A stretch of DNA of 64,000 nucleotides. Origin: Centroscyllium fabricii (taxonomy: Eukaryota). The stretch spans positions 289,168,001-289,232,000 of the forward strand of contig JBNRSN020000002.1 in assembly GCA_051313645.2 (NCBI GenBank), in the 5' to 3' direction. The position numbers were made by a program, and so were the translations under genes. Below are positions 13,801 to 55,335 of this stretch, piece after piece; position 1 is the stretch's first letter; every line of letters starts with the position of its first letter. The notes beneath the pieces are model-generated. The model was not told the DNA's origin. It did not search any database and worked only from the letters and a program-made list of their open reading frames with translations.

Positions 13801-15260
13801 ATGGCCTGTCCCACCCCGGCACCCGCACGTCCACTAAGCTGATTTCGGCACGTTTCGTCTGGCGCAGCCTGCGCAAGGATGTCCGCGCCTGGACCAACGC
13901 CTGCACTGCCTGCCAATGCGCCAAGGTGCACAAACACATCAAGGCACCGCTGGAAATGTTCACCATCCCAGCTAGACGCTTCGACCACGTCCACATCGAC
14001 CTGGTCGGACCACTACCGCCATCACGGGGACACACACATGTCATGACCATGGTCGACCGCAGCAGCCGCTGGCCAGAGGCAGTCCCACTCATCGCTACCA
14101 CCACCGCGGACCTGGCCAGGGCTTTCATCGCCACCTGGGTCGCACGTTTCGGCGTACCCACCGACATCACATCGGACAGGAGCCCCCAATTCACGTCAAC
14201 ACTATGGGTGACCATCGCCCGCGACCTCGGGGTAACCCTGCACTGAACCACCGCCTACCACCCACAGGCCAATGGCCTCTGCGAACAGTTCCACCGCTCC
14301 ATCAAAGCTTCCCTGTGGGCCAGCCTGAAGGACGCAACCTGGACCGACCGCCTGCCCTGGGTAATGCTCGGCCTCCGCTCAGCAGCCAAGGAAGACCTGC
14401 ACGCCTCAGCGGTGGAACTCGTCTACGGCCAACCTTTAACCATACCAGGCGAGTTCCTCGCAGAACCCAACGCTCCCTGGTCAGCCAACCAGTGCCTCAA
14501 AGAGTTCAACAATCAGGCACGAGCGTTCAAACCACTACCGGTGGCCCGGCATGGAGAGCCGGCAGCACGTGTACCAGACGGCATCAAGAACGCCAAATAT
14601 GTGTTTGTCCGCCACGACGCACACCGATCGCCACTACAGCCACCGTACGACGGACCGTACAGAGTGCTTCGGGCGGGAGCTAAGGCTTTTGAAATCAAAA
14701 TGGGCAACAGTACTGAAACTGTCTCGATAGACCGGCTCAAACCGGCACACGTAATGGCGGGCAAGACAACAGTCCCCGTGCAGCCACCAAAACGCGGACG
14801 CCCTCCCGCACCAAAACCCGCCCACACTCCCACGCAGAACAAGGAGCAGCGCACGACACGTGCCGGCCGCATCATCCGGCCACCTCAACGCCTCGCTTGA
14901 GACTCATTTTTTATTTTAACTTTATTCTCCCTTTTTTTATTTTCATTTTATTCTCCCTCACAGATTCTGGGGGGGAGCTGTGTGGCGACACCCCCACCAA
15001 AGCCATCGAATCTACCTCGGGAGTACTGCGGGGCACGGCCCCGCCCATCGGGTGACGTGATGACGTCACCGCGACTTCCGGCGTGATGACATCACCGGGA
15101 CTAGCGGCGTGGTGACGTCACCAACGGCGGGCTCTTTAAATAAGCCTGCTCCAGGTGGCTCAGCCTCTTTGCTACCTGGCCCCTGTAAAGTATAGTAATA
15201 AACGAGTGTTTTCCTATCTCACTGGCTCCAGCGTGGTTCTTCAGGCCTGCATGCACTACA
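10899..15260 (+). mobile_element. Full-length Ty3/Gypsy LTR retrotransposon, CsRn1-like
   Basis: 280-bp LTRs 10899-11178 and 14981-15260 (TG..CA, about 11 mismatches by hand); TSD ACTG; tRNA-Trp-like PBS TGGTGACCC at 11180; PPT before the 3' LTR; CHCC gag motif CYYH...C...C. Confidence 0.95.
11277..14900 (+). pseudogene. gag-pol (Gag, PR, internally deleted RT, RNase H, integrase)
   Basis: ORFs at 11277, 13377 and 14364 share one frame, broken by TGA at 13284 and 14244; DTGA protease; TTDAS RNase H; HHCC plus integrase core, GPY motif; RT YxDD block missing. Confidence 0.93.
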
Positions 15261-19860: not shown

Positions 19861-22800
19861 TTAGTCCTCCAGGCGTCTGGGAAGAAATCTAACGTGACTT
19901 GAACGCCGCTGGACAGGCATAGTCGGGGTGCCACTACTAGCTGCAGGAAAACCTTCCTCCATGGCTGATGACGCCGTGACACCTTCTGTCGATGTGGCTT
20001 CAGTTGCTGTTGCGGGAAGCAGGCCGTCACTGCCTGGCAGAGGTGGTGGAGACAATGGCCTAGCCTGTGACGTCTCTGTTACTCTCACCGGAGTACGACC
20101 CCGTAGCTGGTCTACGTGGCGTCTGTGCAGCTGGCCATCAGGTGTACGGATGCTGTATGACAGGGGACCTGTGGCCTACTCCACCACGGCAGACATCCAT
20201 TTGTCTCCTCCTGCATAGCAACGGGCAAACACGGTCTCTGAAGGCTCGAACTGCCTGGCGGTGCCCTGGTGCTTCTTAGCCAGCTCCTCTTGCTTTGTGT
20301 GCATCTCATTCCTGTAGTCCGGGTGTAGCCGGTCCAGTGCAGTCGCCAGTCAGCGACCCATCAGTATTTCGGCAGGACTCTTCCCCGTTGCTGAGTTTGG
20401 TGTGGTATGCTGTGATAACAGGAACCTGGCCAATCCGATTTGCTAGTCCCCCACCGATATCCTCACCAGTGCCTCTTTTGTGGTTTGCACCATCATCTCT
20501 GCCTGCCCATTAGAGGAGGGGTGATAGGGCGCTGTGGTCACATGGCGGATTCCGTTTCTGCCTGCAAAAGCCGTGAACTCCACTGACGTGAAGGCTGCTC
20601 CATTGTCCAAAGCCAGCATGTCGGGGACCCCATGTGTGGCAAACAGCAAACGCAATATGTTGATCACTGCACTGGATGTCATGGAGCTCATGATAGCCAC
20701 ATCCAGCCATTTTGAATGAGAATCCAACACCATCAAACAGACCTTCCCCTGAAATGGCCCTGCAAAGTCAATGTGGAGTCTTGACCATTTACGAGTGGTC
20801 CACTCCCAGGGGTGAAGGGGAGCCTTGGGTGGGCTATGGCGAGTCAGCTGACATGTCTCACAGCTCTTTACCACCTCCTCCATGTCTCGGTCCAACCCTG
20901 GCCACCAGACGTAGCTTCTCGCCAACGCCTTCATGTGCACAATCCCAGGGTGTGAGTCATGTAGCATTTTCAGCACCTCCTCTCTTGCGGCAGCAGGAAC
21001 CACCACATGGCTTCCCCAGAGCACACAGTTCTTGTGTGCAGACATTTCATGGCGCCTCTGAACGAAGGGCTTGAAATGCTCCTCCTGGACCTCGGAGGGC
21101 CAGCCATGCAGCAGCCAGCGTAGCACCCGTGACAAGACTGAATCTTTCTGTGTGAGGCTGTCAATCTGCTGGGCATGGAGTGGGGCCTCTGGAACCACCT
21201 CCAGGGATGGTGGCGTCTCAGCCATCGGCCGGTTCAAAGGCAAGCGACTCAGAGCATCAGCATTAGCTAGCATCTTCTCAGGCCTGTAGCAAAGTTCATA
21301 ACTGTAGGCCCCCAACATCAGACTCCACCGAAGCATACGCGGTGATATGATCTGGGGCATGGGCTTGGAGTGATGCAGGAGTCCCAAGAGTGGCTTGTGG
21401 TCTGTGTAGATGACGAACTGTCTCCCTAACAGGTACTGGCTGAACTTCTTTACCCCAAATATGATGGCTAGGGCCTCCTTGTCAATCTGGGCATAATTAC
21501 GTTCTGTTGTTGAGAGTGTTCTTGAGGCAAAACTGATAGGCGCTTCCTGGCCATCTGGCTCTATGTGATCCAAAAGAGCTCCCAGCCCATATGGTGAGGC
21601 ATCACACACCAACACCAATGGCTTGTTTTCATCATAGTGTGCCAGAACCTTATCTGCTTGTAGCAGTTCCTTTGCCTGTCTGTAGGCTGTTTCATGAGCT
21701 GAGGTCCAGTTCCACACTGTTGCTTGGTCTAACAGCCTGTGCAGTGGCTCTAAGTTTGTAGCTTTGTCCTTGAGAAAACAACTGTAGAGGTTTAACAGTC
21801 TGAGGAATGCCTGCAGTTCAGCCTTGTTCTTGGGGGTGGGAGCGCTCCTGATAGCCTCCACCTTCTCCGTAGTCGGATGCACACCATCTTTGTCCACTCG
21901 TAATTCCAAGAACTCTACCCCATTGGCAGTGAACACGCATTTCTCCTTCTGAAGGCGTAGTCCTACCTCCGCCAGCCGTCATAGTACTTACTGCAGCCGC
22001 TCATCATGGGCTTCCTGTATCTTGCCTGTAATCAGTATGTCATCCAAGTAAGGCTGAACTCCCAGGACCCCAGCCAACAGGGTGTCCATGAACTTCTGAA
22101 AGATTGCCACAGCCGTAGACACCGCAAACTGCAGCCTTGTGGCTCGGAAAAGTTCTCTGTGGGTGTTGATTGTCAACAGCTCGGCTGACTCTTCATCCAG
22201 GACCAGTTGCTGGTATGCTTGTTTGAGATCCAGCTTGGTGAACAGGGTGCCTCCAGTGTTGAAAATAGCTCTGTCAGTGATACACATCTGGTAACACAGC
22301 TGTATTAACCATACATCTGTAATCTCCACAGATTCGCAGGCCCCCATCCTTCTTTGAAATGGGCATGATAGGGGTGGCCCAACGGGAGTTCTTCACTGGC
22401 AAGAGAACCCCTTGGTTCACCAGCTTATCCAGGGCCTCATCCACCTTCTTGCACAATGCAAAAGGCACTGGTCGCGCCTTGAAGAACTTAGGCGCTACCC
22501 CTGGGTCCACTTTGATTGAGACTGGCGGTCCCCGACAGGCCCCGAACTCATCAAAAACCTCTTCATAGTTCTCCAACATAGGCATTATGGGCTGTTGCTG
22601 TACTGTGTGTACTCCTGTCACTTCAATACCGAGGGGCAGAAACCAATTTCTGCCCTGCAGGCTTGTGCCCTGCCCCGCCACCACATAAAGTGGAAGTGTG
22701 TCCTTGACTGCCTGATACTTAACTTCCACATGAATCATACCCAGCACCTGGAGTTGAGCTTGGGACCACTGCGGTAGCACGCCACTGACCTGAGCCATCG

Positions 22801-23776
22801 CCGGGGGTTCACTTGGCCACAGCCTATTGTAAGTCTCTTCACTTATCAACGAGCACGCTGAGCCTGAATCCACCTCCATGCAGAGTGGTGCCCCATTCAT
22901 GATCACATTTGCCGTGTACCCCCACCGTCTGTGGGGTAGCTGCACAGCTTCCATGGTATACACTGTGTACCCATTGTTGTCCTGCAGTGTCAGGGTGTGT
23001 GTCTGCGGTGCTTGTGTTGGCTCTGCTGCAGCAGCCTGAGCTTTCTTCATGCAGACACGAGCTATGTGTCCTTTTTTCTTACAGAAATGACATACCGCTG
23101 ACACAAATTTACATGTAGTGGGACCATGGAGAGCCCCACAGTGGAAACATTTTTTTCCTGTCTCTTTAGTTGCCTCCATGTCTCTCGCAGCAGCAGCTGT
23201 GTGTGTGGTCTTGTGCACCTCTTCGGCGGCCTGAGATGGCGCTGCCTCTGTACGGAGCATACGTGTGTTCATCGATGCAGCCTCTGCTGCTAAAGCCTTC
23301 TCCTCGGCCAATCGGAACGTCAGGGCCTTCTCTGCTAACAGCTGTCTCAGCAATGCCGAGTCCAGCACTCCACACACAATCCGATCACGGAGCATCTTGC
23401 CTAAATGGTCACCAAAATTACAATGTAATGAGCATTTCCTCAACTCAGCAATGTAACTTGAAATAGATTGTCCAGGCTGTTGTTTACAATTGTGAAAATG
23501 GAAACACTGCACAATCTCTGAGGGTTTTGGGTTAAAATGTTTCTGCAGCTCCTCAATCAAATCAGCATAATCAACCTCACTAGGTTTACGAGGAGCCACC
23601 AATGAACGCAGGATGGAGTAAGTAGGAGCTCCGCATAAACTTCGTAACACTGAGCGCTTCTTCTCTTCTTTGTCAATATCATTGGCCGCAAAGAAACACC
23701 CCAGTCTTTCTGCGTATTCCTCCCATGAACTATCCTTATCCCCAGAGAACTCTTCAATAGGTCCCAAGGTAGTCAT
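19861..23776 (-). pseudogene. gag-pol of the Mag-like element
   Basis: Gag with double zinc knuckle, DSG protease, ICGDY and YLDD RT, CDASPYG RNase H, HPG and HIDFAGP integrase; several frameshifts and stops. Confidence 0.93.
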
Positions 23777-23806
23777 AGTTTAAATGTACACTATCCCTTT
23801 AAGATC

Positions 23807-24044
23807 TGTGGTAATCCTATAAATACCACTGTAAATAGTTGATGGCTCACCTTGTATTGTATTGTAGGCCAGGTCAGCCACACCCCTAACTCCTCCCCTT
23901 AGGTCGGAGCATATAGGTGAGGGCTGCCCTGCCCCTGCTCATTCTTCGCCTTGAACTCATCAGGAGACCAGCTCCATTGTTAGTTAATAAAAGCCTGTAG
24001 TTTAGGTAACTACTCGTCTTTGCGTTTTAATTAACGATACGTCA
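23807..24044 (+). mobile_element. Solo LTR inserted antisense in the 5' leader of the Mag-like element
   Basis: TGTGG...GTCA termini, TSD AGATC, AATAAA; blocks similar to the 30041/35433 LTRs. Confidence 0.88.
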
Positions 24045-26479
24045 AGATCCACGGACTTTTTTACTTTTCTCTTTTTTTAATATATATTCTTTTTCTCCTC
24101 CGGCCAGAGTTACGTTAGCTGCACTCACGGTAGTTGCCTGGCCCGCACAATACTATGTCCGCTGTCTGCGTCGCAGCTAGCCAACTATCAAAATGCTATT
24201 GATGTTGCTAGCTGAGTGGCCCGCTCGTCGCCATTTCCAATATCACGGCTGTAGGTTCGAATGTCTATCTCCGTCCTTTTAGAGAGTACAACAGCCGCCT
24301 CATCGCCAGTATTGCATCTTGACCGAACAGTAATGAGTAGAGGAGACAGAATGTACTTTTAACTATTTACTGAGTAAGTTGATCTACATTACAGCACATG
24401 GTCTGCAAAGCAGAGCCCCCAAAACGAAAGTGAAGCTAAAGTCAACAGGACCCCCCAGGCCCCTCCCTTCCGGTAACACCCAGGCACTGGGACAAACTTA
24501 ATTAAAGCAAACTCAAAACGCAACATAGATTAAATGAAGATTTAATGGAGAGCAACCCTCCATGGTGAGTCCACTGGAGATAATATTCAGCATAAATGGT
24601 TTCTGGTTTTGTCAGACAAGCAGCCAGCGCAGATTCAACAGCACTTGAATTATTAACTTCACACTGAAGTGCAGTCTCAACCAACAACGGGAACTGCACA
24701 ACAATTCACCCATCAGCATTGTTTAGGCATAACCATTGTGGTAACCGTAATTACCAGTCTGTATATAGTTATGTGTTCATCAGTGGCTCTGTACATTGTG
24801 GGTTCATATATGGATGTATTCACCTGTAACCCTGTATATTGTGTGTAAGGCCAGGTACTCATCTTTCTTGTCTTGATTGACGATATGTCAACCATCAAGA
24901 AGACAGCATTTACATTTATACCTCTTTGTTTTTCTTCAAATTATTCTGCAAAAATACTGTCTATGTCTAAGATATCAAAACTGAAGACACCAGTCTCTTG
25001 TAACATCCTCCAACTCATGCCATCATAGTCCTTGTTTCAGATGGTTCAAGAGTAATTTCAAAGTGTAAACAGAATAAAGGATGCATTGCATATCAATGCA
25101 CCTCCCTGAGTTGTGTTGGGCATCACTAGTGTAGGCGTATCAGCTAAAGAGTATAGAGTGAAGGTTCACACTCTACAGTCAATTCTTATTGAGCAGGTGA
25201 ATTTAGCATCAAGAACATGTTTGTAGTCGGCGTCTCTCTCAACTGGATTCCTCCTTCCTCTCTTTCTTTCTCAGTCTTGTTTTTTCTAATTAATCCCACA
25301 AACCATACCTGGGGATATATTGCTACAAAGCTGATTGCTTTTAACGGGTTGTCTAAAACTTTACAAACATACCCAATATCACTCAGGAGAGGGGATAATA
25401 TTTACTTATGCTTTCCTAATCTAATGTGAATATCAACATCAGTACTTGGCTATCCAATTAGTTCCATTCCCCTGCTATTGCCCCGTAGCCCTTCAATTTT
25501 TTTCCTTTTCAAGTATATATCCAATTCCCCTTTGAAAATTATTATTGAATCTGCTCCCACCATCCTTTCATGATTCCAAATCATCAAAACTCACTGCGTA
25601 AAAAAAAATCTTATCTTTCCTCTGGTTCTTTTGCCAATTTTCTTAAATCTGTGTCCTGTGATTACTGACACACCCACCCACCAGTTTCTTGTTATACACT
25701 CTAACAATCAGAATACCGTACAACAGGGTAAAAAAAAGAAGAGAGAACTCAAAATGATCAAAAAGAAAATGTAACTATAAATATAAAACAAGATCAAACA
25801 GCTGCAGCCCAGAAATCAATGCGGCAGAGAGATTTAACAAAATATAAAGTGCTGCAGAATATAAATGTTATTCTGCAACACCTGTCCTCTGAACCTCTCG
25901 ATTAAAGACTTCCATTTGCCACAATACTTCTGCAGCTGCCGATTTGCTCAACCATTCTCTCAGCTCCACCAGTGCCCTCAGTAAATCTTTTACTGCCTCC
26001 CGTCCTGGTCATTCCTCCTGGTGTGGCCCCCATCTTCACTCCCTCTAGTTCAAGGAGCGCAGACACTGAGCAGATCTGGCACACAATCGTGTCTTGCTCT
26101 CCAACTTCATTCCCCTGTCTGGCTACTGTCTCCTATTTTAATTGAACCAATAAGGAGACACTGAGTTACCCCAGTGTCATCAATGCAAATAAAACTAATC
26201 TAATAAAAGTGCCACCTTTTTAGAGAGGCACAAACAATAAATACCCAAATCATAAAAAAAACCAAAAGGAAACTTATTAAATTTAATAAGAATGTTGTCT
26301 CCACTGTGCCGTCCATTCCCCGGTCGCGGAAGGCCTCAGGCGTACCGGCGGACACCGCATCCTCCTTTTTCAGGGCCACCCGGGTGCAGATAGAGCCACA
26401 GAAGAGAGGCAGGCAGCCGGAACGAACACTCCCGATGTTGGCCATCGTCTCAGGCTGAACCGGATGACTCGCCGCCTCG

Positions 26480-29203: not shown

Positions 29204-30878
29204 GCAAACTGTCTACACATGAAAAACTAACCATGCAAAATTCATAATGAACATATTTACTCAACTTCCAATCCAGTTGAAAAAGATTTTCACCTATATG
29301 TGGACAGGATGAATTTCTAAAAAGCAGGATAACAGAAACATTTGGAACCAACTGAGACCTGTAACAAGAATTGAATATACATAACTTTGGTATATATTCA
29401 AAGATCTCTCTCAAACCTGTGAATACCAGTTTAATATTGAGAGTGAGAATTATGATTGGCAAAGTGATGTAGGTTGCAAAACCATTCAAATATGCAGAGC
29501 AGTGACATGGATCTGCTGTATGGAACATGCTGTCAACATCCCGAAGAAATATTAATGCCAGGCAAACTGTATTGCTACCGCTAGATTGAAGGAGATATTG
29601 AATATATGTCTGACACTAGACCACAGGGAAATACAGTACCTGCTGCTAGATTGTCCTTCACTCAGCTGGATGAATATTGTCTGGGTCCCCAGAAAAAAAG
29701 AATTAAATGATGCAGGTCACTGTGGTAAAACCCAGCCGTGGCACCGTGTGTGATTCCAGTTTTGCAACTAGCTGCAGCTTTAATTGTTCCAAATTAATTA
29801 TGTCTGCTGAAACATCATGTTGTAAACAAAATAACAGGTTTTGTGAGGCTGGTTTAAAGACTGCCACGCTGCAATGAAATCTCAGAGCAATAATCTCGAA
29901 CAGGCAAATGGAGACAGCTGGAAGACAACTGTAAAATGTCAGCCTGGCAAAAGTACAAGCTTCTTGGCTTACTTAGCTATGACTTGCTTCATCAAAGTAT
30001 GTAGAATTGGTCAGCTCAAAGGATTAGAAGACAAAATCCTTGACGTATCGTCAAGATCTTCAATTAAAAGAGTCGACGCGTAGTTACCGAAACTAAAGGC
30101 TTTTAATTACTAAAGAACGGAGCTACTCTCCTTACGAACTACTATACAGGAATGGATGGAGCCTCGGTCAGACCACACCTATATCGGGGCCTCACCTGGG
30201 GGAGGAGTCGGGGGTGTGGCTGACCTGGTTCCCAGCAGTGTCATAGTAAACAGGGCTGTGCCTAACATCTGCACAGCCCATCATTAGCAATGGTGATACA
30301 GTGGTAATATAGTTGTAAGACGGTTACCACATTCACCCCTTCTTAAAAACTTTGAGTCCGGGGTGGGTGAATGGATCGAACAGTTCATAATTAGTCTGTC
30401 CGGCGGTCGTGTCTGCCTGGCGGACCGCCGGAGCTCCGGTGTTGGTGGTGATGCCTCCCTGGTAGAATAGCCCGCATCTGTCGGCACTGTGACTTCAGGT
30501 TGCGGTGGGCTCGGCTGGGCCCCGGCGTCCGGGACGTAGTCGGGGAAACTCGGGGGCCATCTTGCGTCTGGTGGTTGGTCGACCTGCTGGCCAGCAGGAG
30601 GCGCTGTGGTGGTGTTTCCGGCCGGGGCCAGGTCCCTGATGGACACAGTGTCCTCACGCCCGTCTGGGAACTGCACAAAGGCGTAGTGCGGGTTGGCGTG
30701 TAGGAGCTGTACCTTGTCCACCAGGGGGTCCATCTTGTGGCTCCGGACGTGCCTTTTAAGCAAAACCGGCCCCGGAGTCGTCAGCCATGGAGGGAGTGCC
30801 GTCCCCGAAGTCGACCTCCTGTTAAACGAGAAAATAAGATCGTGCGGGGTGGCGTTAGTAGCAGTACATAACAGTGAT

Positions 30879-31559
30879 CTTCTTCTTTCGTTTGCTTCAG
30901 TATCCCGTTGTCAGATCACCAGCTCGGTTGAGGAAAGCCATGCTAGCGTTTCGTCGTCTAGAGCAGCTATGCCGGCTTCGCCGTTGGGTGGTCGATGTTT
31001 TAGACATGACTCGATGATGTGATCGACTGTCTGTTCAGGGTGACCACAGTCGCAGACAGCCGAGTCCCTGAGTCCCCATCCTTTCATGGTCGCGGCGAAA
31101 CGGCCGACACCAGTCCTGAGGCGGTTGAGCATTGTCCACTGCCGGCGAGGGAGGTCCATGCCCAGTAGTTCATCCGGCTCCTCCACAAATCTGTGCAGCC
31201 TTGATTGATCTGCTGCCTGCCATTCCTTCGTCCAGCGGCGTTTAAGCCAGGTTCGTTTTGTGACATCACCGGGTGTTGAATGCAGGAGCTGGTGGGCGTG
31301 CTCCGCGAATGGGCGTCGTGACTTCAGGCGAGCTCGTGGAGGGATCTCTGTGACGAACTTGTGGAGAAGGTGGTCCTCATCGTTGGTGGCTTTTCGGGAC
31401 AGTGCAAGGACAGCTGCTTCACGGCGCAGGGTTGGTGGTGCGATGCCGGCGAGTATCGGTAGTTGGTTGACCGGCGTGGCGCGCAGGCAGCCAGAGACTG
31501 TGCGTAAGGCGGTGTTGAGCGTTGTGTCCAGCTTCTTGGTGTGGGAGCTCCTGCACCAG
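30879..31559 (-). mobile_element. Vingi/Ingi-like non-LTR 3' fragment nested in the Gypsy integrase
   Basis: RLKSRRPF, LNRLRTGVGRF and CDCG..QTVDHII..C motifs; GAAGAAG tail; TSD ACAGTGAT at 30871 and 31560. Confidence 0.8.
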
Positions 31560-33937
31560 ACAGTGATCTGATAGAGTGCAGCGCATCTGGGAGGACTGCC
31601 TGCCAATGGGACACTGGAAGGCCTCTGGACTTCAGAGCCAGGGTGACCGCCTTCCAGATAATCCCATTCTCTCTTTCTACCTGGCCGTTCCCCCGGGGGT
31701 TGTAACTGGTCGTTCTGCTCGTGGCAACCCCTCTCTGGAGCAGAAACTGGCGCAGTTCATCGCTCATGAACGATGACCCCCGGTTGCTATGGATGTAGCT
31801 GGGGAGACCGAAAATGGCGAACAGCATGGTGAAGTGTTTGATCACCGTTGCGCTCGTCATGTCTGGACATGGGAAGGTGAAGGGGAAGCGGGAGAACTCA
31901 TCTACTACCGTGAGGAAGTATGAGTTGCGGTCGGTGGAAGGGAGGGGGCCTTTGAAGTCCACGCTGAGACGTTCAAAGGGGCGGGTGGCCTTGATGAGGT
32001 GCGTCGTGTCTGGCCGGAAAAAGTGGGGTTTGCACTCGGCGCAGACAGGGCACTCTCGGGTTATAGCCTTGATCTCCGTGATGGAGTAGGGGAGGCTACG
32101 GGATTTGACGAAATGGGCGAGTCTGGTGACACCCGGGTGGCAAAGGCGGTCGTGGAGGTCCTTCAGCCAGTCTAGCTGGGCACTGGCGCACGTTCCCCTG
32201 GACAGTGCGTCCGGGGGTTCGTTGAGTTTGCCTGGTCGGTAAAGAATGTCGTACTCGTAAGTCGAGAGTTCGATCCGCCACCGCAGGATCTTATCATTCT
32301 TGATTTTACCCCGTAGTTTATTGTTAAACATAAACGCCACCGACCGTTGGTCGGTGAGCAGGGTAAAACGCTTACCGGCCAGGTAATGGCGCCAGTAGCG
32401 CACGGCCTCCACGATGGCCTGGGCCTCCTTTTCCACTGCTGAGTGGCGAGTTTCGGGTCCCTGTAAGGTGCGGGAGAAAAACGCTACGGGCCTGCCTGCC
32501 TGATTCAGGGTGGCAGCAAGGGCAAAGTCCAAAGCGTCACTCTCCACCTGGAAAGGGATGGATTCATCAACAGCGAGCATGGTCGCCTTGATAATATCTT
32601 CCTTTATCCTTGCAAATGCCGTTTGGGCTTCTACAGAAAGGGGGAAGACTTGAGGAGTGGTCTAGCCTTATCTGCGAACTGTGGGACCCATTGTGCATAA
32701 TAGGAGAAAAATCCTAGACATCTCCTCAAGGCTTTGGGGTTGTGAGGTAGGGGCAGTTCTTGCAAGGGTCGCATACGCTGTGGGTCGGGGCCGAGGACCC
32801 CGTTCTCCACCACGTATCCGAGGATGGTGAGCCGGGCTGTATTAAAGACACATTTATCTTTGATATACGTGAGGTCTAGCTTAGCCGCCGTGGCGAGGAA
32901 TTTGGCCAGATTGGCATCGTGGTCCTGCTGGTCGTGGCCGCAGATGGTCACGTTGTCCAGGTAAGGGAAGGTGGCCTGCAAGTCATTTTGGTCGACCATA
33001 CGGTCCATCTCCCGTTGGAACACTGACACTCCGTTGGTCACGCCAAAGGGGACCCAGAGGAAGTGGTAGAGCCGACCGTTCGCCTCGAAGGCGGTGTAGG
33101 GGCGGTCGGCTTTCCGAATCGGGAGCTGATGATACGCCGATTTAAGGTCGATCGTAGAGAACACCTTGTACTGGGCGATCTGATTGACCATTTCTGAGAT
33201 GCGGGGAAGGGGGTAGGCGTCGAGCCCGGTGTAGCGGTTGATAGTCTGGCTGTAATCGATAACCAGCCGCTGTTTTTCCCCAGACTTCACCACTACAACT
33301 TGGGCGTGCCAGGGGCTGGTGCTGGCTTCAATAATCCCCTCCTTCAGCATCCGCCCGACCTCCGACCTGATAAACGTGCGATCCCCCTCACTGTACCGCC
33401 GACTCTTAGTGGCAATAGGTTTGCACTTTGGATCGAGGTTGGCGAACAGCGAGGGGGGGTCGATTTTCAGGGTGGAGAGGCCGCAGGCCAGGGTCCGCTT
33501 TGGGGGGAGATTGTCCCGGCTACTGAGGGTGAGGGGGGGTAAGGTCCCGCCGAACTCCATTGTCACATTCCTGAAGTGGCACTGGAAATCCAAACCTAGT
33601 AAGGCTGGGGCACACAACTGTTGGAGGGTATACAATTTAAAATTACGGTACACGCGCCCCTGGACGGTGAGCGTGACGGAGCAGTAGCCGGTGACGTCCG
33701 CGGTGTGGGACTGTGAAGCTAGTGAGATTTGGTAGTTGGTGGGCAGGACCTGCAGTCCGCAGCGCCGCACTGTATGGGGGTGAATAAAACTCTCAGTGCT
33801 GCCTGTGTCGAAAAGGCAGTCGACAGTATGATTATTAACGCCAATCGGTCTTATTGAGTTAGACAGGTGATGGGGCCTGCCTTGACTAACTCTGGTTCTG
33901 GCTGCAGCAGCCCCTGCTGATAGGGACTGTGCACAAA

Positions 33938-34445
33938 ATGGCGCCGCCCCTGGCTCGCACATGGAGGGGCCCTGGATGCAAGATGGCGCCGCCCCTGGCT
34001 CGCACATGGAGGGGCCCTGGATGCAAGATGGCGTCGCCCCTGGCCCGCAGCTGGTGGGACCCCGTATAAAAGATGGCGCCGTCCCTGGCTCGCACATGGA
34101 GGGGCCCTGGAAACAAGATGGCGTCGCCCCTGGCCCGCAGCTGATGGGGCCCCGTACAAAAGATGGCACTGTCCCTGGCTCGCACATGGAGGGGCACTGG
34201 TTGTGTAATGGCGTTACTGAGGGGCCCTGTGAACGCGCTGGCGGCGCCCGTGATTCGCATGCAGCGAACCGCGGTGAACGCGCTAGCGGCGCCCGTGATT
34301 CGCACGCAGCGAACCGCGGTGGTCGGGTTGGCGGTGCCCGTGATTCGCACGCAGCGAACCGCGGTGGTCGGGTTGGCGGTGCCCGTGATTCGCACGCAGC
34401 GAACCGCGGTGATCGGGTTGGCGGTGCCCGTGGTTCGCACGCAGC
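33938..34445 (-). repeat. Two in-frame 45-bp (15-aa) tandem arrays in the Gag-PR linker
   Basis: FAACESRAPPTRPPR about 5 times; SMCEPGAAPSCIQGP-type about 6 times. Confidence 0.9.
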
Positions 34446-35904
34446 CGGCCGCGTTGGGGGGTCGCGCTTGGCCGGTCGCCGCTGCATCGGTGTGGGGGAT
34501 GGGGGCGCTTGTCGATTACCCCCGTACCGTCGCTGAATCGCGCTGCTAAGGCAGCTTACCTGATCTCTGTCGGTGCTCTCACAGGCTGCACTGTTGTACC
34601 TTTTATTAAACGCTGCTGGAGACGCTGCTGGAGACGCTGCTGGAGCTGATTTGCAAACCTTAGCGTTGTGTCCCTTCTTTGCGCATTTCTTGCAGGTCGC
34701 TGTCCTGGCTGGGCATTTTGATCTAGGATGCAGTCCCTGGCCACAGAAGTAACAGTGCTTCCTTTTAACATCTTCAGTGGCCGTCGCGGCCATCGTGGGT
34801 GTCTCGGCCCGTGGCGCCCAGGCCTGGGCCTGTTGAGGCGCGGCCCATATGTTGTAGGCTTGCGGGTTGGTGCCGCTGTACGCCTGTAACTTTTTGCGGG
34901 CCCCCTCAACCGATTTGGCTAACGTGGTTGCCTCATCGAGGGTTAGATTGTCTCTTTCTAGTAGCCGCTGGCGGGCTTCCACACGCCTTAGTTCTGTTAC
35001 ATAAGCGTCCCGAGCGAGGAGTTCTTCCTCCTCTGCAATAGTTGTGCCTTTGCAGCCACAGGCCCGTACCAGGGCTAGGAGCGCTTGCTCAAACTCTTCG
35101 TTCGACTCACCCGGTAGTTGAGGTCTAGTCGCTAGCACATGTCGGGCGTAGACCGAATGGACCGGGCGCACGTAGCATTTCTTTAAAATCTTAACGGTCG
35201 CTTCGTAGGTTGTGGCGTTCCTGACGAGGGTGAATACTCTGCTGGAGATCCTAGATCGCAGGACATGTAGCATGTCTTTGTCTGCTGTAGCCTCGGTGGC
35301 TTCCATGTAGGCCTCCAGTAGGCCGAACCAGTGTTCGAAGGTGGTGGGAGCAGCAGGGTCCTGGGGGCTGATGTCCAGCTTCTCAGGCTTCACGTTGTAG
35401 CTATCCATTTTAAATAATTTAGTAATTAAAATTGATGTATCGTCAAGATCTTCAATTGAAAGAGTCGACGCGTAGTTACCGAAACTAAAGGCTTTTAATT
35501 ACTAAAGAACGGAGCTACTCTCCTTACGAACTACTATACAGGAATGGATGGAGCCTCGGTCAGACCACACCTATATCGGGGCCTCACCTGGGGGAGGAGT
35601 CGGGGGTGTGGCTGACCTGGTTCCCAGCAGTGTCATAGTAAACAGGGCTGTGCCTAACATCTGCACAGCCCATCATTAGCAATGGTGATACAGTGGTAAT
35701 ATAGTTGTAAGACAGTTATCACAATCCTTTTGTATTTTGTACACAATTTTGTGTCAAACACTATCGACCACAACAAAACCCATGACATTTCTAACATTCA
35801 TGTTTGCACAGATGAGCCTGAATAATTATCTTGAAAGTTCCTAACCCCACTGGAAACAACAAAGATTTTTGATATGTTATTCCTTTAAAAGGTTACACAG
35901 ATCA

Positions 35905-42744: not shown

Positions 42745-43340
42745 TATGGGATGTGGGCGTCGCTGGCAAGGTTAGTATTTATTGCCCATCCCCAATTGCC
42801 CTTGAAAAGGTGATGGTGAGCAGTCTTCTTGAAATGCTGCAATCCGTGAGGTGAAGGTACTCCGACAGTGCTGTGAGGTAGGAGTTCCAGGATTTTGACC
42901 CAGCGACAATGAAGGATTGGTGATATACTTCAAAATCAGGATGGGGTGTGACTTGGAAGGGAACTTGGAGATGATGGTGTTCCCATGCGCCTGCTGCCCT
43001 TGTCCTTCTAGGTGGAAGAGGTCATGGGTTTGGGAGATGCTGCCGAAGAAGCCTTGGCGAGTTGCTGCAGTGCATCTTGTAGATGGTGCACACTGCAGCC
43101 ACGGTACGCCGGTGGTGGAGGGAGGGAATGTTTAAGGTGGTGGCTGGGGTGCCAATCAAGCAAGCTGCTTTGTCCTGGATGGTCTTGAGTGTTGTTGGAG
43201 CTGCACTCATCCAGGCAAGTGGAGATTATTCCATCACATTCCTTACTTGTGCCTTGTAGATGATGGAAAGGCTTTGGGGAGTCGGGAGGCGAGACACTCG
43301 CCGCAGATTATCGAGCCTCTGACCTGCTCTTGTTGCCATT
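42745..43340 (-). mobile_element. CR1/L2-group LINE 3' fragment
   Basis: MSAAPTTLKTIQDKAACLIG...HRRTVAAVCTIYKMHC. Confidence 0.82.
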
Positions 43341-43484
43341 GCTTACTATCAATACGCAGGAAGAAGCACAGGGCACTTCACATCCCCAGCTTTCACTTGG
43401 AAGTGTCCCCTCACCCACAGCCTTATGAATCTGGAACCCACTGAAAGCCTTGCATGGAATGTAATTGTTTAATACATGGCTGTT

Positions 43485-44545
43485 GCCACACCCATTGTGA
43501 TCTGCCTGTCACCACACCCATTGTGATCTGCCTGTCGCCACACCCATTGTGATCTGCCTGTCGCCACACCCAATGTGAACTGCCTGTTGCCACACCCATT
43601 GTGATCTGCCTGTCACCACACCCATTGTGATCTGCCTGTCGCCACACCCATTGTGATCTGCCTGTCGCTACACCCAATGTGAACTGCCTGTCGCCCCACC
43701 CATTGTGATCTGCCTGTCGCCACACCCATTGTGATCTGCCTGTCGCCACACCCATTGTGATCTGCCTGTCGCCACACCCATTGTGATCTGCCTGTCGCCA
43801 CACCCATTGTGATCTGCCTGTCGCCACACCCATTGTGATCTGCCTGTCGCCACACCCATTGTGATCTGCCTGTCGCCACACCCATTGTGATCTGCCTGTC
43901 GCCACACCCATTGTGATCTGCCTGTCGCCACACCCATTGTGATCTGCCTGTCGCCACACCCATTGTGATCTGCCTGTCGCCACACCCAATGTGATCTGCC
44001 TGTCGCCACACCCATTGTGATCTGCCTGTCGCCACACCCATTGTGATCTGCCTGTCGCCACACCCATTGTGATCTGCCTGTCGCCACACCCATTGTGATC
44101 TGCCTGTCGCCACACCCATTGTGATCTGCCTGTCGCCACACCCATTGTGATCTGCCTGTCGCCACACCCATTGTGATCTGCCTGTCGCCACACCCATTGT
44201 GATCTGCCTGTCGCCACACCCATTGTGATCTGCCTGTCGCCACACCCATTGTGATCTGCCTGTCGCCACACCCATTGTGATCTGCCTGTCGCCACACCCA
44301 TTGTGATCTGCCTGTCGCCACACCCATTGTGATCTGCCTGTCGCCACACCCATTGTGATCTGCCTGTCGCCACACCCATTGTGATCTGCCTGTCGCCACA
44401 CCCATTGTGATCTGCCTGTCGCCACACCCATTGTGATCTGCCTGTCGCCACACCCATTGTGATCTGCCTGTCGCCACACCCATTGTGATCTGCCTGTCGC
44501 CACACCCATTGTGATCTGCCTGTCGCCACACCCATTGTGATCTGC
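43485..44545. repeat. 26-bp minisatellite, about 41 copies
   Basis: Head-to-tail GCCACACCCATTGTGATCTGCCTGTC units with no spacers. Confidence 0.98.
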
Positions 44546-46814
44546 ATGTTGAAACCCGGGCTACTGAATGTCATGGTAACCAAAGGTAATTCTCACTTTT
44601 AAAAAAAGTGCTCATTAAGATATGGGATGTTAGTGCAGGGGATGGAAATCTCCCCACTTCAAGTACCCAGTGTCAGCACCAAGCACTCCCAGATGGGTGT
44701 AGCATAGCTAAATGCAGAGCAAAGCTCCACCTAATCTGCATCAATGATGGGGCTCAGCCGTTACAAGGCTACTGGGGAACAAGAGTTGTATGGGATTGTT
44801 TCATTATCCCTTTTTGTAGTGGCTGGGTCAGTCACAGATTCTCCCCTCTGTCTGACACTTTCATTGAAGAGGCAAAATGACTGCCCTTCCATTACTAAGG
44901 CCCAATTTCTTGCTCCTGGAATGGCAGCTGAGTTACTGCCACTTGTGTGAATACATTAGTCTGACATTTCAACCTCCAGCGCTCCTTTCCTTATGTTTAC
45001 ATCTCTTGTCTTCACCTTCTGGAGTCACTTCTGCAAATTAAACTGATGCAAGTCTATACACCAAACTAGTTAATTAAAAAAAACGTTTTTCTCCCTTCCC
45101 TTCTTGACCTTCAGTGATATAAGGTTCACTGGGTGCCAATAACCGCATTCAGTTTTAAATAGAAACATTTTGAGCAGCTTTTAATTATTACCCTATCTCA
45201 GATTCATATAATAAATCCACACCATTGTTTGTCTGGGCATCGAATAGAACATTGCAGACTGGACAGTGGCCGTCAAAAATGGGCAATACTGGCTCCACTG
45301 AGCGACCTGGCGATGTTTTATGATCACAGGAGCTGTGCCTTCAATAAAGCTGCAAACACATTTTTGCCACAAATTAAATAAAATGGAATTTAGCCCTGGG
45401 CATGTTCCAAAAGAGTAAACCCATAACATTATTCCTTGCAAACCACCTTACCCTTTGCAGAAGATCTGTGTAATCCAATAAAAACGTCACTGAGATTGCT
45501 GCAAGCTACTCTTGGCTAGTAACTAGTGTTTGCCATCAACTCTTATCATGCTTGAGTATATTTGAAGCACTTCAAGAGATATGGGAAGGCTCAGCAGTGC
45601 CAAAGCAAGAGAACTGTAATTAAAAGCACTGAAAAATCTCTCATGAAAGAAGATCTTGCTAGTATTCCCCAGTTTTCAATCTTTTTCTCATATAAATAAG
45701 GTCCTATAAATTTCTGTCTAATGACTGTGTACACCGTTCACTGAAGTGATCAAACCTACAAATAGAATTTCTACTAAATCCTATTATTCGCTCACTATTG
45801 TGTGATATCAACCTGTGTGGAATTCTCAACTTGCTTGTATGTTGTGAAATAAAATAGATTCAGAATTTAGAAGTTGGTGGCATCACCAGTTGTATTTGAC
45901 CTGCCATGTGCATATCTGTGTGCACGTGCGTCTGTGGGAGTTAGAAAATGTAAGTTCAAAAGAGTATAGGCCAGATATTAACTCAAGGCAAGTGGCGAGT
46001 GTGGGGCCTGCGAGGCGAGCAGCAAAGCACGCCCTGACTAATCGACATGAGGCCTGAGCCATTTTAATTCCTGGGTCTCATTTAAATAGACCAGATCTGA
46101 TGCCTAGCTCAACCTGGCATCAGTGAGATCAGGCCAGTGGGCGGGAGTTGGGCGAGTGCGGCAGGAGGCTCTGCAGTCAGGGACACACAAGGACGGTCGA
46201 AGAGGGCTGGGCGGGGAGTGGCGGGCGGGGGGGGGGGCGCCGGTTCAGGGCAGGGGATTCCAGGTGATCTCAGGAAACCCAGGACAGGGGGAGGTTGATC
46301 CTCCATGCCGGATGTCATTGGTGAGGCTGGAACCAGGCACCGACCTTGATCCTGCTGATTAAAATAATGTCAAGGTTTGATTGACATCATTAGCCCCTGA
46401 CGATTGAATGTCAATGAGGCCCTTGTCTTCTTGGGGCAAGGCCTCACCTGCTGCCCAAAACGTGTCAATAAAAATGAAAAAGGGCGCGTGTGCAGCCTGG
46501 CTCCAGTGAACACCACACTGCCGATGCAGTCAATTCGTGCATTTGTATTAATGACGGATTAGTGCATTTTTTCCCCATGCTTCTAGAATTGATCCAAGGA
46601 GTAATGCAGATTAATGCACGTAAATGCCTATACAGGGTATTTGTTTTCTGGGGGTGGGTGGAGCTTCTTTAGTGCCAATAAAGGAAACACGTAAATTTGC
46701 TCCCGCTTACCTTCCAGCCCATATTAACAACGCCCACTATAAAGATTACATAGGAGAGGTTCGGAACAAAGCAGAAGACTCTTCAGTGGCAGTGCAGGTG
46801 AATCAACACGTTTC

Positions 46815-49203: not shown

Positions 49204-51419
49204 CTGAAACTAAAGATGCCTCCAGAGATCAAGCTGAGTGGATTACCCTAGACAGACTAGCGAGTGGGTATGGAGACATCCATCTCCCCACTGCCCATGA
49301 CATAATTTATTCATAACACTTACTATTAGATCTTCTGTCATGTTAAGAAAGAAAGACTTGCATTTATATAGAATGCCTTTCATGACCACTGGCCGTCTCA
49401 AAGCGCTTTACAGCCAATGAAGAACTTTTGAAGTGGAGTCACTATTGTAATGTGGGGTGTTACTTATGGGTAGTCCAGAACCGTATGCGTACCACATTCA
49501 CAGTGAAGCGTAAACATGATGGTGGTTTGCCCACCACTATTATAGCAAATTTGATGAAGCAGCATATTACATAATTGACATGAGATAAAAAGTATTACAC
49601 TTTACCAATATTAATCATCTCAGATATATGTAGAGGATGTGAACTGGAGAATTAGATATGGCTCAAACTGCCATATTCCTAACCATTAATTTTAATCACT
49701 GGATAATCAGGAGCACCACTGATGGCCACGTCCAAATCTCTCATTTACACTGCTGACCAACAAGACTCCATGCTGGAAGCAATTTTGGGAGTTTAATAGG
49801 GGCATATTTCTACAGGGGTTCTCCCACACCACAGCCGCAAATCCCGGAAAAATGGCACAAAGTGCTTCAGGAATGTTTTTCCTAATGTCAAGTCTCCAAT
49901 GATAGTAACTTGGAACAGGTTCACCACACTGACTGACGACTGATGCTAAGCTCAGACATTGCAGCTGCAAAGTGCTTTGCCTCAGAATTTTTACACAACA
50001 GATTAAACTGTATGAAACAATGGGAAAAATATTGCTTTTAAAAAATGTTGTTGCTTTAGGTCACTTAGCAAGTGTAAAATAATGTGTTATGGAGTGTGGC
50101 AAATGCCTATTAAATGCAAGACTTTCAATGATGTAGGCAAGACTTTCAATGATGTAGGTAGATAACAGATTTTCAACTTCAAAAAGACATTTTGTTGCAT
50201 TGCTCTTTCACTGATATTTACCCCAAAATATGCAATAAATTTTGACTCATACTTTTATACAACAGCATGTGTCAAAATAGAGATCTCAGCAGGCCTCATC
50301 TGTAATCAGAATTTGTAGAAATAAATGTGGAAAATAATTTCACACACCACTAAACACCAAAGAAGGATCTTCATCATTTATACTGAGCGTGACCAATGTT
50401 TTTCTTGATGTGGAAACCAATATATCAGCAAGTATTCATACAAAATGATGATAGACAGTTTCATTTCTTCATTGCCGACAATTACTGAAGCTAAGGATTG
50501 TCCTCTTAGTGGTAGTGTTCCGCAAGGCGAGACTTCCACCTGTGCTTCTGACAATGATCTAACCCTGACCAAATGGTTCCCTGGTCAGGGTTCATCAGGT
50601 GTGCACGGCTGGTCCTGGTGGGATTCCCGCCACCAGCAGAAAGCCCGTCATTACCTGGCTGCAAAATTTTGGTGGCCCTGAGTGGGTGAAAAGGTCAGAA
50701 GTGCTGCGAAGATCTGCACAACAGCCGTGGAAAGGTAAATTGCAATGAGAGTGGAGGGAGAAGAGGCCCCATAATGCTCTCTGGCTCCATGCTTGTGGGG
50801 GACCTCAGGGCTGTGGTGTATGGACAACATACACATATATACTGATGATGCTAGACTCTACCTCTGCATCACCTCTCTATATCACCCCGGGGCTATCCGA
50901 TTGCTTGTGCTCAATTCCAGTCTTGGCTGAGGCATAACTTCTTCCAGTTCAACACTGGAATGACCAAAGTCATCATTGTGGTGCCTGTGCCTTTAAGGAT
51001 TATACTGGGCACTGCATTATGTGATGTCACCATGCTGCAGTACATTTACCAACCACTATCGTGTATATAAGCTCGTGTGTGCAGTTTCTGTTTCAGTTCT
51101 GTTCTGCAGTGAGTTCCAGATTTACTATGACTAGTAAACATCGTTGTACCTTTACCGTCGAGTCTGTCGTTATTAATCCTTAATAGCGCGGACTTAACAA
51201 TGGCGACGAGGTCGGACGAAGCCATAGCTGTGCAATTGGCTACGTCGAGAAATGATGAAAGTTCTGTGTTGAACTAATCCATCGACCACCAAGGCACACC
51301 CTGCACCTCAAACCAAGGAGGGGCAGCGACTTCCAATGGTAGGAACTCATAGGCCTACACTTCAGAAATGGGAGTGGCGAAGCATCTTCACTCCAGCCAC
51401 CAGAAATCGGCATCAGGAG

Positions 51420-51705
51420 TCCACAGAAGTCGGCAGCAGCAGTCAACAGAATTCGGCAACAGCAGCCACCAGAATTCGACAGCAGCAGCCAGCAGCGATC
51501 GGCAACAGCAGCCAACAGAATTCGACAACAGCAGTCAACAGAATTCGGCAACAGCAGCCAACAGAATTCGGCAACAGCAGCCAACAGAATTCGACAACAG
51601 CAGCCAGCAGAATTCGGCAACAGCAGCCAACAGAATTCGACGGCAGGAACCAGCAGAGTTTTGCATCAGTAGCAGCCAGCAGGAATCGGCAACAGCAGCC
51701 AACAG
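51420..51705 (+). repeat. 23-bp tandem array in the 5' leader
   Basis: GGCAACAGCAGCCAACAGAATTC units, about 11 copies. Confidence 0.88.
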
Positions 51706-51879
51706 CGACCGGGTGCCCAGCTCTACTGCGGCAGGTAGGCCACGGAGCAGGACCCAGCCAACAGAAGTGGTCGTCGAGGATCAGGGGTGGTCCTCCGACC
51801 TGAAGAAAAATTACAGCTACCAGGTAGAAAGCATTTGTTACTCTGACCGTGGGAGGGAAGTAAGACTCAGCGGGGAAGA

Positions 51880-52290
51880 GGTGCGCAGAGGCGGGGAGAC
51901 ACCATTTTGGGGCGCGAAGACGCCGGAAGAGACGCGCAAGGGTGGGAAAAGACGCCATCTTAGCATGCAAAGAAAATGGAAGAGACAGGCAGGGGCGGGA
52001 CCAGACGCCATCTTAGCGCGAGAAGAAACTGGAAGAGGCGCGCAGGGGCGGGACCAGACACCATCGAAGCGCGGGAAGAAAACAGAAGAGACGCGCAGGG
52101 GCGGGACCAGGCGCCATCGAAGCGTGGGAAGAAAATGGAAGAGACACGCAGGGGCGGGACCAGACGTCATCTTAGCGCGAGAAGAAAACGGAAGAGACGC
52201 GCAGGGGTAGGACCAGTCGCCATCTTAGCGCGGGAAGAAGGTGGGAAGATGCCGGAAGAGACACACAGGGGTGGGACAAGACGCCATCTT
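51880..52290 (+). repeat. About 53-bp tandem array in the 5' leader
   Basis: GAAGAGACGCGCAGGGGCGGGACCAGACGCCATCTTAGCGCG units, about 7 copies. Confidence 0.85.
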
Positions 52291-52312
52291 ACCCCAATAG
52301 CATACAGTAAAG

Positions 52313-53643
52313 ATGGGGGAACAGGAAAACGCACAACCAGAGGCAACCAGAGCCAGACAAAATAGAATTGTACCAAACGGGTTTGGGGCTTTCCAGTCAG
52401 AAAAAGAGGACTGGGAAGCATATTTAGAACATTTTGATATATACTCCAACGTAGCAGATGAAAACAAACTAAATGTTTTACTAAACGCAGTAGGACCCGA
52501 AACATATGGGTTACTACGAACGCTAGTAGCCCCGGATAGACCGGCGAATAAAACACTCCAAGATGTAAAGGATATCTTAAAGGAAAATCTAAACCCCAGA
52601 CCCCCGTTCATAGCAGAACATTTTAAATTCTTCAATAGAGAACAGCAAAAGGGGGAGTCAAAGTCCGAGTATCTGACCAAACTTAGACGTTTAGCAAAAC
52701 ACTGCGACTTTGGGGATGAACTAGTTAATTATTTGAGAGACAGATTTGTCTGTGGCATTCTGGACGAGGCCACTCACAAGAAGTTACTGGCTAAAAAGAC
52801 GCTCACGTTAGAGCAAGCTTTAGAAACAGCCGCAGCCCACGAGGCTGCTGCAGCAGGGGCAGCACAGATAAGAAACAGCGGGGGTTGCCTAGAAACCCAC
52901 GAAATTACGACTCGCACGAAAAAGTGCTACCGCTGTGGCAAGTCCACACACGATCAAAACAACTGCTGGGCCAGGGATAAGGATTGTAGGCAGTGTGGCA
53001 CGATAGGCCACATTGCGGCGGTTTGTAGGTCAGGGAGACAAACAAAAGGGTCACGAAGGCAAACACAAAAACAGGGCGGTCCCAGGAAGGTAGACAAAAT
53101 TACAGAAGACGGTTCGGAGAGCGAACCAGATAACCAGGGCAGAGAACACTGGGGGCTAGGAAGCCTAAAAGTCTACAACAGGGGCGGTCACACTGACTGG
53201 AGTATAATATGGATTCCCCTTAGGGTGGCAGGGGTACCCATATCAATGGAGCTAGACACAGGGTCGGCTCTATCGGTCATAAACAAACATTTTTACAAAA
53301 AGACGTTTAAAGGAATACCCCTACAACAGTCCCCTGTGATACTGAAAACATACACGGGACAGATGTTTAGGACTTTGGGGAGGTTGCCCGTCACAGTTAG
53401 ATATGAAGGTAATCAGACAAAAGGTCTTTACCGAAATGTCTTAAAGGATGGTGGAGCACCACTCTTGGGGCGTGAATGGATAAACAAAATCCATATAGAT
53501 TGGAACTCAACCCATGACTTACACATAAAGGGTGAAGAAAATAATACAGCCACGTCGGACAAACTGGATATACACCAGAGGCATATCTCCCGTCTGACTC
53601 AGGGGCTACAGGAAGCCCGAGACCAAATTGATTTGTTGCGGAC
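52313..53643 (+). CDS. Gag (double zinc knuckle) plus aspartic protease; 5' part of the interrupted 801-aa ORF
   Basis: LRDRFVCG, CYRCGKSTH..C, CRQCGTIGH...C, ELDTGS, LLGREW; no stops up to the nested insertion. Confidence 0.88.
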
Positions 53644-54350
53644 TATTGTGTATTATATCATATAATAATACAAGGACACCAGAGATAAAATAAACAAGTC
53701 TTTACTGGGGGTCGTCATCAGGAGAAGTGAGGAGTGTGGCTCCACCCCTTATTTATACTGGGGCCCGGAACTTCTTTACAATACAATGTATTCTTACACA
53801 GCAAGAAGTTCCGGGCTTCACAATATAGTGCACTGTCTACACATACACCACACTCCTCCCCTTTTAGTTTTTACAGCAATCTTTGTTAACTATATACAAT
53901 ACAATCTTTGTTAACTATAAACAATACACTACTTTTACAATTCCTGTCTTTATGAATAACATCCATTTGTAAAAGTAAACAAACAATCGCTGATGATAAT
54001 TGCTTTGGTTATCATTACAAGTTCAGCCTTTTTGGAGGCCTTCGATCCCTCATGGGATATCGTCGTTCCCTTGTTTCCGGCTCTCTATGTGGGCTTGGCT
54101 CCCTGTCATCTAAGGGATGATTTGTATCGTCTAGCACCTCAATGAGGTCTTCAATCTCGCTGCTGTATTCTTCCATCTGAGCATATGCATGTGATCTGTG
54201 GTGCTCTTCAGTCTGAGTGTGTGACTGAGATCTGTTTAATAATTGGTCGGCGTGTCTGCGTACTGTGTTGTCTCCCACATTCATGGTATAGGTGAGTGGC
54301 CCCTGGCGTTCACTTATTGTTCCGGGTTGCCACTTTTCTGTTGTCCGGTA

Positions 54351-55335
54351 GTCAAAGAAGCACCAGTAGTAGATCCGGTAGAGATTTTCCATGCAACTAT
54401 TGTTGATGCACTGCCAGTCACCAATGCCGCGATAGAGACAGAGACTAGGAAAGACTCGACACTGTCGCGGGTGTATGATCTAACGGTATCCGGATGGCCA
54501 GCACAGGGTGACCCACTGTTGCCAGCATTTTCTGCCAGAAGTGAACAACTGTCAGTGTGCCGAGGAACCCTAATGTGCGGCACACGGGTGATCATTCCTC
54601 CCAAACTCCAAGAAAAAGTTCTCAAAGAACTCCATGAAGGACATCTGGGGGGAGTAAAGATGAAAAGCCTCGCCAGGGCATATGTGTGGTGGCCAGGCAT
54701 AGATAAACAGATAGAGGACCTGGCCAAAGGATGCAATGGATGCCAGAAGGTCGAAAACGCGCCGCCACCAGGGCCCCTACATCCGTGGGAGTGGCCCTCC
54801 TCTCCTTGGCAGAGGGTACACATAGACTTTGCTGGCCCATTCATGAACTCAATGTTCCTTATCGCTGTCGACGCCCACTCGAAATGGCCGGAGGTCATCA
54901 AGATGTCCTCTACCACTACAGAGAATACCAATTCGGTCTTGAGGATGATCTTCGCCAGAAATGGATTGCCAGAGCAAATATGCTCAGATAATGAGCCTCA
55001 ATTCGTGGCGGAGGAATTCAAAAGTTTCATGAAAGTTAATGGAATCAAACACTTCACGTCAGCACCTTATCACCCAGCCACAAATGGTCTGGCTGAACAT
55101 TTCGTCCAAACCTTCAAGAAAGGTATGAAGGCAATGTGTGATGACAACAGGAAATTGCAACATAAACTTGACTGTTTCTTGTTTGCGTACAGAAATACGG
55201 CGCATTCTGTCACTGGGCAGCCTCCTTCGATACTGATGTTCAACCGACGGTTAAGGTCAAAATTGGACCTGGTGAAACCAAACATAAGAAGGGAGGTAGA
55301 AGACCAACAGTACCAGAGGGTATATGAGAAACCCA
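54351..55335 (+). pseudogene. Integrase segment inverted relative to its element
   Basis: HEGHLG..KMKSLAR, HIDFAGP and PYHPATNGLAE read on plus, while gag, PR and the integrase tail are on minus. Confidence 0.9.

Follow-up and report, generated by a model that had tools for sequence, protein, structure and literature searches.

A retrotransposon lineage of Centroscyllium fabricii very probably primes reverse transcription with its own RNA. The window considered here is a stretch of 64,000 nucleotides of this genome, and the element under study within it, young and broken, belongs to a very abundant Ty3/Gypsy lineage that is devoid of a chromodomain. Self-priming is supported because the primer-binding site (PBS) covaries with a segment of the element's own long terminal repeat (LTR), and because aberrant copies carry a copy of the primer. 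This primer is probably a 5' fragment of the RNA with a predicted length of about 53 nt (44-55 nt), of which only the last 13-14 nt would be paired; we infer its start and its cut site from motifs and from DNA fossils. In the mechanism that we propose, transcription would start at an initiator, and a segment of R ending in the poly(A) hexamer would pair with the PBS. A single cut directly after the duplex, before a conserved [G/A]CC, would then free the 3'-OH. The primer would stay attached and be copied during plus-strand synthesis, a step which would rewrite the PBS from the LTR at every cycle. The copy reaching the 5' end of the RNA would sometimes hit a wrong acceptor or fold back, and would thereby leave fossils.

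The element and its primer-binding site

The element is a minus-strand Ty3/Gypsy LTR retrotransposon with TG...CA LTR ends, a 5-bp target-site duplication (35724..35728 on the left, 30036-30040 on the right) and a polypurine tract (30332..30344). Its 5' LTR (35433..35723) and 3' LTR (30041..30331) are 291 nt long each and show 4 differences over this length. Open reading frames and domains delimit a gag-protease-RT frame (32631..35408), with the RT motif YLDN near 32.9 kb, and an RNase H-integrase frame (31324..32661), so that the domain order is protease, RT, RNase H, integrase. The copy is broken by a frame shift between these two frames near 32.65 kb. Comparison with the sister copy L242 reveals an insertion of about 680 nt within integrase (30881..31559), missing from L242, which we take to resemble a LINE 3' fragment. 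In-frame arrays of 45-nt repeats are also present within gag (window 33850-34550).

The sequence-only reading had described a 5' LTR followed by no TGG, and indeed none is found in this copy or in the 30 family copies fetched out of 40 matches listed. The terminal CA is followed by one A (35432), 14 nt complementary to the LTR (35418..35431), 9 nt, and the gag ATG at 35408. The single-base spacer is an A in 36/38 families. As had been noted, the 14 nt from 35431 to 35418 are the exact reverse complement of LTR positions 35506 to 35493, they begin one base from the LTR edge, where a PBS sits, and the paired LTR segment, the putative 3' end of the primer, contains ATTAAA (35494..35499), a likely poly(A) signal. 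It could be asked whether a tRNA PBS had been deleted from this copy. The 14 nt following the LTR are identical in 30/30 family copies, therefore no tRNA PBS was lost here, and the full 14-nt pairing is seen in 29/30. In a comparison with a small set of tRNAs (9 distinct loci) the longest shared word was 7 nt.

A solo LTR near 23.9 kb of the window represents a sister family; of 30 loci fetched for it, 9 show a 5' LTR-gag junction and 21 do not. The PBS position of the sister family differs at the two sites where its LTR differs, as expected from the covariation that the sequence-only reading proposed to look for, and the pairs are restored; seven of the 9 junctions are perfect over 13 nt. This solo LTR is carried by one of three further Gypsy elements of the window, all with a TGG-type PBS: 20443-24290 (minus strand), 10896-15260 (plus strand) and 53635-58978 (minus strand), the last with an apparent LINE insertion. 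The RT match in the 55-kb element looks like an inserted LINE and was left out of RT comparisons. Part of the RT core is gone from the 11-kb element (12.3-13.3 kb) and from 4/6 fetched relatives (L287, L289, L290 and L291); the frame is kept open, and copies differ in what they lack. Minisatellite arrays of 26, 23 and 53 nt are found at 43321-44600 and 51348-52310.

Covariation of the PBS with the LTR across the lineage

The pairing was then considered over the whole lineage. Among 230 loci examined, 171 were usable, i.e. contained a gag start and 150 nt upstream (128 from the same genome and 43 from metagenomes, the latter taken from the best 80 of 534 loci by RT). Selection on PBS letters is absent from the metagenome set alone, some own-genome loci having been picked with such letters. 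In this set, chosen by RT alone, 36/43 loci pair over 11-19 nt with their own LTR; in the own-genome set 103/128 pair over at least 11 nt with their own upstream LTR. After shuffling of the upstream sequence, a match of 11 nt arises in 5/1960 trials, and never a longer one. When the loci are grouped in 49 sequence clusters, 38 pair over at least 11 nt, with 29 different 12-mers among them, and the duplex starts 1 nt past the CA in 34/38. In about 22/27 loci (by eye), the LTR end defined independently from the 3' LTR lies no more than 4 nt from that CA. Each of the duplex positions 4 to 13 shows two to four pair types among the 38 clusters. The PBS matches its own LTR at 11.9 of 12 positions on average, versus 7.6 for LTRs of other families, and perfect pairs across families are rare (28/1406); cluster representatives are the best-pairing members, so that perfect pairing is partly by choice.

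Compensatory changes are found lineage-wide. Double changes within clusters, which mix subfamilies, are compensatory in 5/5 cases. In one copy of a young family, L140, both LTRs carry a change and the PBS has the matching one; L137, with a change in both LTRs and none in the PBS, is a counter-case. Over 158 registered copies we counted 1998 Watson-Crick pairs, 8 G-U pairs and 48 mismatches. We propose that pairing is near-perfect and G-U pairs are scarce because copying of the primer renews the PBS from the LTR. Several of the 11/49 clusters devoid of an 11-nt match are truncated or decayed, and two loci (L170 and L199) are unexplained. At the scale of the genome, a pattern made of the LTR end, a T-rich PBS and an ATG has 78,535 matches, versus 59 for its control. 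Another pattern, aimed at single-copy changes in the family of the window copy, caught other families instead, with 29/30 loci paired (L272 was not). The gag alignment of the lineage is too variable for a locus scan, and scans of viral contigs revealed no relatives of the lineage.

These results bear on the role of the duplex. AATAAA or ATTAAA lies inside it in 28/38 families, an overlap expected if the duplex served only to hide the 5' poly(A) signal while some host RNA, a tRNA fragment for instance, acted as primer. This explanation is extremely unlikely: against it stand the fixed start of the complement exactly 1 nt past the LTR, the 29 different 12-mers each following its own LTR, the near absence of G-U pairs, and the leader copies described below, which come directly after the PBS. 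Moreover the hexamer is missing from the duplex in 10/38 families, hence masking cannot be the sole reason for the pairing. Hiding of the 5' poly(A) signal, which the sequence-only reading had also put forward, is a plausible second use of the duplex and would not be a general one.

The boundaries of the duplex are informative on the primer itself. Its 3' edge is fixed and its length varies on the 5' side, positions 14, 15 and 16 being paired in 26, 20 and 17 of the 38 clusters. The spacer is nearly always an A and the LTR base following the segment is G or A in nearly all families, so that the primer likely stops right before the [G/A]CC. Family comparison identifies a conserved [G/A]CC[T/A] directly after the primer end, located in this copy at 35478..35492 (minus strand), which begins a short hairpin in many relatives and is reduced here to 3 bp. 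A hairpin is present right after the primer in 19/38 clusters (4.3 expected by shuffling, 7-22/38 at offset controls). A U5 hairpin at the LTR end is found in 14/16 own-genome versus 3/22 metagenome clusters, and the region around the PBS has folding z scores of -1.8 and -2.2. A helix joining the leader to the AUG region was not supported (mean z of -1.2 for own-genome and 0.0 for metagenome clusters). U5 often has a second, shorter T-rich word, as judged by eye in this copy (window 35447-35468, minus strand) and in related families; its pairing with the hexamer region could form an alternative hairpin, in both LTRs. We also sought a poly(A)-tailed retrocopy as a marker of the RNA 3' end. Two patterns led to the same hit and no other; it is a regular element, whose 5' LTR is complete and whose 3' LTR continues into an apparent LINE, and it was rejected as a retrocopy.

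Predicted transcription start and presumed copies of the primer

Promoter motifs were analyzed in 16 own-genome clusters. Relative to the paired segment, a TATA-like box is located at -62 to -71 in 11 of them and an initiator at -37 to -40 in 14, and the distance between the two is 31 nt even in a family with a quite different intervening sequence. A clear TATA box is present in only 4/22 metagenome clusters. In the window the TATA-like box lies at 35570..35577 (minus strand; related families have TATAAA at the same place), and its function would be to direct transcription from the initiator A at 35545, 31 nt downstream. Transcription is therefore predicted to begin 39 nt upstream of the paired segment, which disagrees with a transcript starting downstream of the complement, one of the outcomes envisaged from the window sequence. 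The 39-nt leader (35507..35545, minus strand), as delimited by fossil end points, would be the unpaired part of the primer. This start was predicted from the TATA-initiator motifs before the fossil end points were seen.

A primer that remained attached to the minus strand and was copied should leave, in some insertions, an inverted piece of LTR after the PBS. The search for such fossils asked for an LTR, a spacer and a PBS, then the LTR stretch preceding the paired segment in reverse complement; patterns of this kind do not see copies below about 24 nt. Three patterns yielded 234, 33 and 6 aberrant loci in the genome, and the reversed-pattern controls none. Among the 136 loci read (100, 30 and 6, respectively), the inverted copy stops within about 80 nt in 67 and runs on far beyond the start in 69. 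In the first 100 loci the end point falls at -1..+2 of the initiator A in 33, within the leader in 19 and at +4..+22 in 5, and the remaining 43 continue to or towards the LTR start. For the other 36 loci the corresponding numbers are 4, 6, 0 and 26, which brings the stops at -1..+2 to 37 of the 67. Counted as distinct junctions, 20 fall at -1..+2, 25 in the leader and 5 in an equal stretch past the start. The peak at the start differs from a uniform distribution (p=4e-11), and the step between the leader and the U3 side has p=2e-4. Copied primers end 52-55 nt from the 3' edge, and 44-46 nt in one family, whose leader is shorter by 8 nt and in which the two near-start copies stop at 45-46 nt (predicted 44). 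As the fossils stop at the predicted start, the primer is likely a 5' fragment of 44-55 nt, and these mis-copies likely map the RNA start to the base, from DNA, in the one genome where the primer 5' end was mapped.

Past their end point, the aberrant copies mostly resume inside the element. One junction into gag (about +135) is common to 16 loci, including L327, with 7 nt of microhomology; these are 16 of the first 33 peak loci and were counted once among the distinct junctions. In 14/16 a T complementing the initiator A is present where the gag acceptor has a C, and the same 14 copies follow the acceptor after this T. The 16 loci have different flanks and several LTR variants, and the junction accordingly was formed repeatedly or, alternatively, was carried along by a derivative that multiplied. 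The long run-on copies are DNA fold-backs. A 5-bp target duplication is present in 4/10 of those with visible flanks, so that they likely integrated with two U3 ends, and they indicate that an inversion can arise without an RNA leader. Some mini-elements of this fold-back type consist of an LTR and an inverted partial LTR (L326, L335, L354 and L390, also L329), with two U3 ends and a target duplication of 5 bp.

Three other origins of the primer have to be weighed against the 5' fragment. Transcription could begin at the paired segment itself, the first 13-14 nt of the RNA being the primer as in Tf1. A second initiator-like word 4-5 nt upstream of the segment in 4/16 own-genome clusters would suit such a start. 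So would the sushi-type elements of this genome, of which 4/10 fetched (L225, L226, L228 and L231) have an 11-nt self-complementary primer about 29 nt after a TATAAA. Both the TATA-initiator spacing and the pile-up of copied primers nevertheless lie 39 nt further upstream, which makes this start very unlikely and runs counter to the sequence-only reading on this point; a second, nearer start, whose copies would be too short (below about 24 nt) for the patterns used, may exist besides.

The same primer sequence, with the same 5' end, could also derive from a short polyadenylated LTR transcript trimmed to the duplex, acting in trans or corresponding to the element's own 3' R. The hexamer at the end of the duplex in 28/38 families is in keeping with such a source, and so are the many solo or 3' LTRs in the genome, illustrated by the 21/30 sister-family loci that are not junctions. 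It is however improbable. Ten families have no hexamer in the duplex, two of them having one further downstream, and a primer taken from the 3' R would have U3 ahead of it and would not end at the start site. In addition, the copied leader resembles its own LTR more than the family average in 30/33 cases and has 26 non-majority variants in common with its own LTR versus 10 private ones, whereas a primer pooled in trans would not track them.

Lastly, the primer could be an internal piece of 13-14 nt released by two cuts. The plus strand would then terminate in a short copy of the PBS and could anneal to the 5' end of a second, uncut RNA of the same element and copy it to the cap. Both the stop at the start site and the match to the element's own variants would be explained equally well in this way, and normal copies show a complement of only 11-19 nt. 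A second cut would be required, for which no conserved signal is seen, and the paired length varies on its 5' side, unlike the fixed 3' edge; we regard this origin as quite unlikely. The 5' fragment cut once thus is our preferred primer. As a control, the sushi-type family shows 0 extended copies versus 693 normal junctions (a weak comparison, about 2 being expected); two of its loci, L233 and L234, pair over only 7-8 nt by exact match.

Relationship to known self-priming elements

Tf1/sushi elements prime reverse transcription with their own 5' RNA end. In Tf1 the first ~11 nt of the RNA act as primer, and self-priming of the Tf1 type involves three duplexes forming a "pretzel" around the PBS. 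The present lineage resembles this system by a PBS complementary to its own LTR, with covariation, and differs from it in several respects. Its copied primers appear to end 44-55 nt from the 3' edge. The sushi-type primer of this genome lies about 350 nt before the AATAAA, whereas primer and poly(A) signal overlap in the window lineage. Tf1, Tf2, Tj1 and the Tf1/sushi group are chromoviruses, whereas no match to a chromodomain, a Tf2-type SH3 or Retrotrans_gag was obtained in the window copy, in the uninterrupted sister L242 or in 9 related polyproteins; a chromodomain was detected in the sushi-type control L225. Self-priming in an element lacking a chromodomain, as initially proposed, is hence upheld by the covariation and by the leader-carrying copies, and the part of the proposal that equated the primer with the 5'-terminal bases of the RNA is not.

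In comparisons with the Ty3 RT, the RT of the lineage scores 106 bits and that of the sushi type 223 (queries of 254 and 277 aa). In the RT tree the lineage forms a clade of its own (100/99) on a long stem, outside 4 sushi-type rows and apart from the sushi-type, Mag-type and CsRn1-type elements of the same genome, the last two names being labels that we presume from gag and PBS features. The trees were built without fungal or plant chromoviruses and named references, and those with three groups cannot place the lineage. The best four-group tree, which carries a long-branch warning since long branches meet in it, does not join the lineage with the sushi type; their sisterhood is compatible with the data and not rejected (p-AU 0.29). 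The RT catalytic motif is DN (YLDN, YMDN or YVDN) in 20 of 25 readable RTs and DD in 5. Relatives by RT occur in sharks, rays, corals, nematodes and a damselfly, and by gag in a sea cucumber (matched by protein alone).

Release of the Tf1 primer is ascribed to the element's RNase H in PMC7175516. Here too the cut could be due to RNase H, an assignment to which we give even weight for and against. Passages of PMC6317226 predict self-priming for the plant TAR lineage (Ty1/copia; Houba, Osr-1) and for the Tcn1 clade, from a complement of at least 10 nt starting 0-5 nt after the 5' LTR, and give no primer ends; self-priming outside Tf1/sushi has thus already been proposed. TAR is a copia lineage and Tcn1 a chromovirus clade, whereas the window lineage is a chromodomain-less Gypsy. 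For molluscs, PMC6238403 lists Cigr-1 and 16 MolGy clades of Ty3/Gypsy, and its main text has no match to "primer" or "tRNA". In the literature covered, with most subscription journals, Repbase and GyDB outside its scope, no report was found of self-priming in this lineage, of a long, internally paired primer or of a previous mapping of the primer 5' end in the lineage; this includes passages of PMC3601003, PMC10886601, PMC13524379, PMC4600332, bioRxiv 2022.12.06.519325, PMC5443660, PMC6934838, PMC3670739 and PMC5341516.

The layout seen here, with an internal paired segment that usually contains the poly(A) signal, differs from that of these systems. It is likely a variant of the known mechanism, with a primer longer and differently placed than in the yeast elements. 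A stronger version, in which the whole capped leader of about 50 nt would be cut at its own poly(A) signal, would have an origin unrelated to Tf1/sushi and would also silence the 5' poly(A) site through the duplex, can be advanced tentatively and is on balance doubtful. The mapping of RNA starts by fossil mis-copies could be applied to other repeat-rich genomes, and annotation tools for which a tRNA PBS is mandatory would probably overlook or misjudge the lineage. Demonstrations of self-priming exist for yeast Tf1, and proposals chiefly for chromoviruses related to it and for a single copia lineage of plants; in the present genome it would occur in one of the most abundant LTR lineages.
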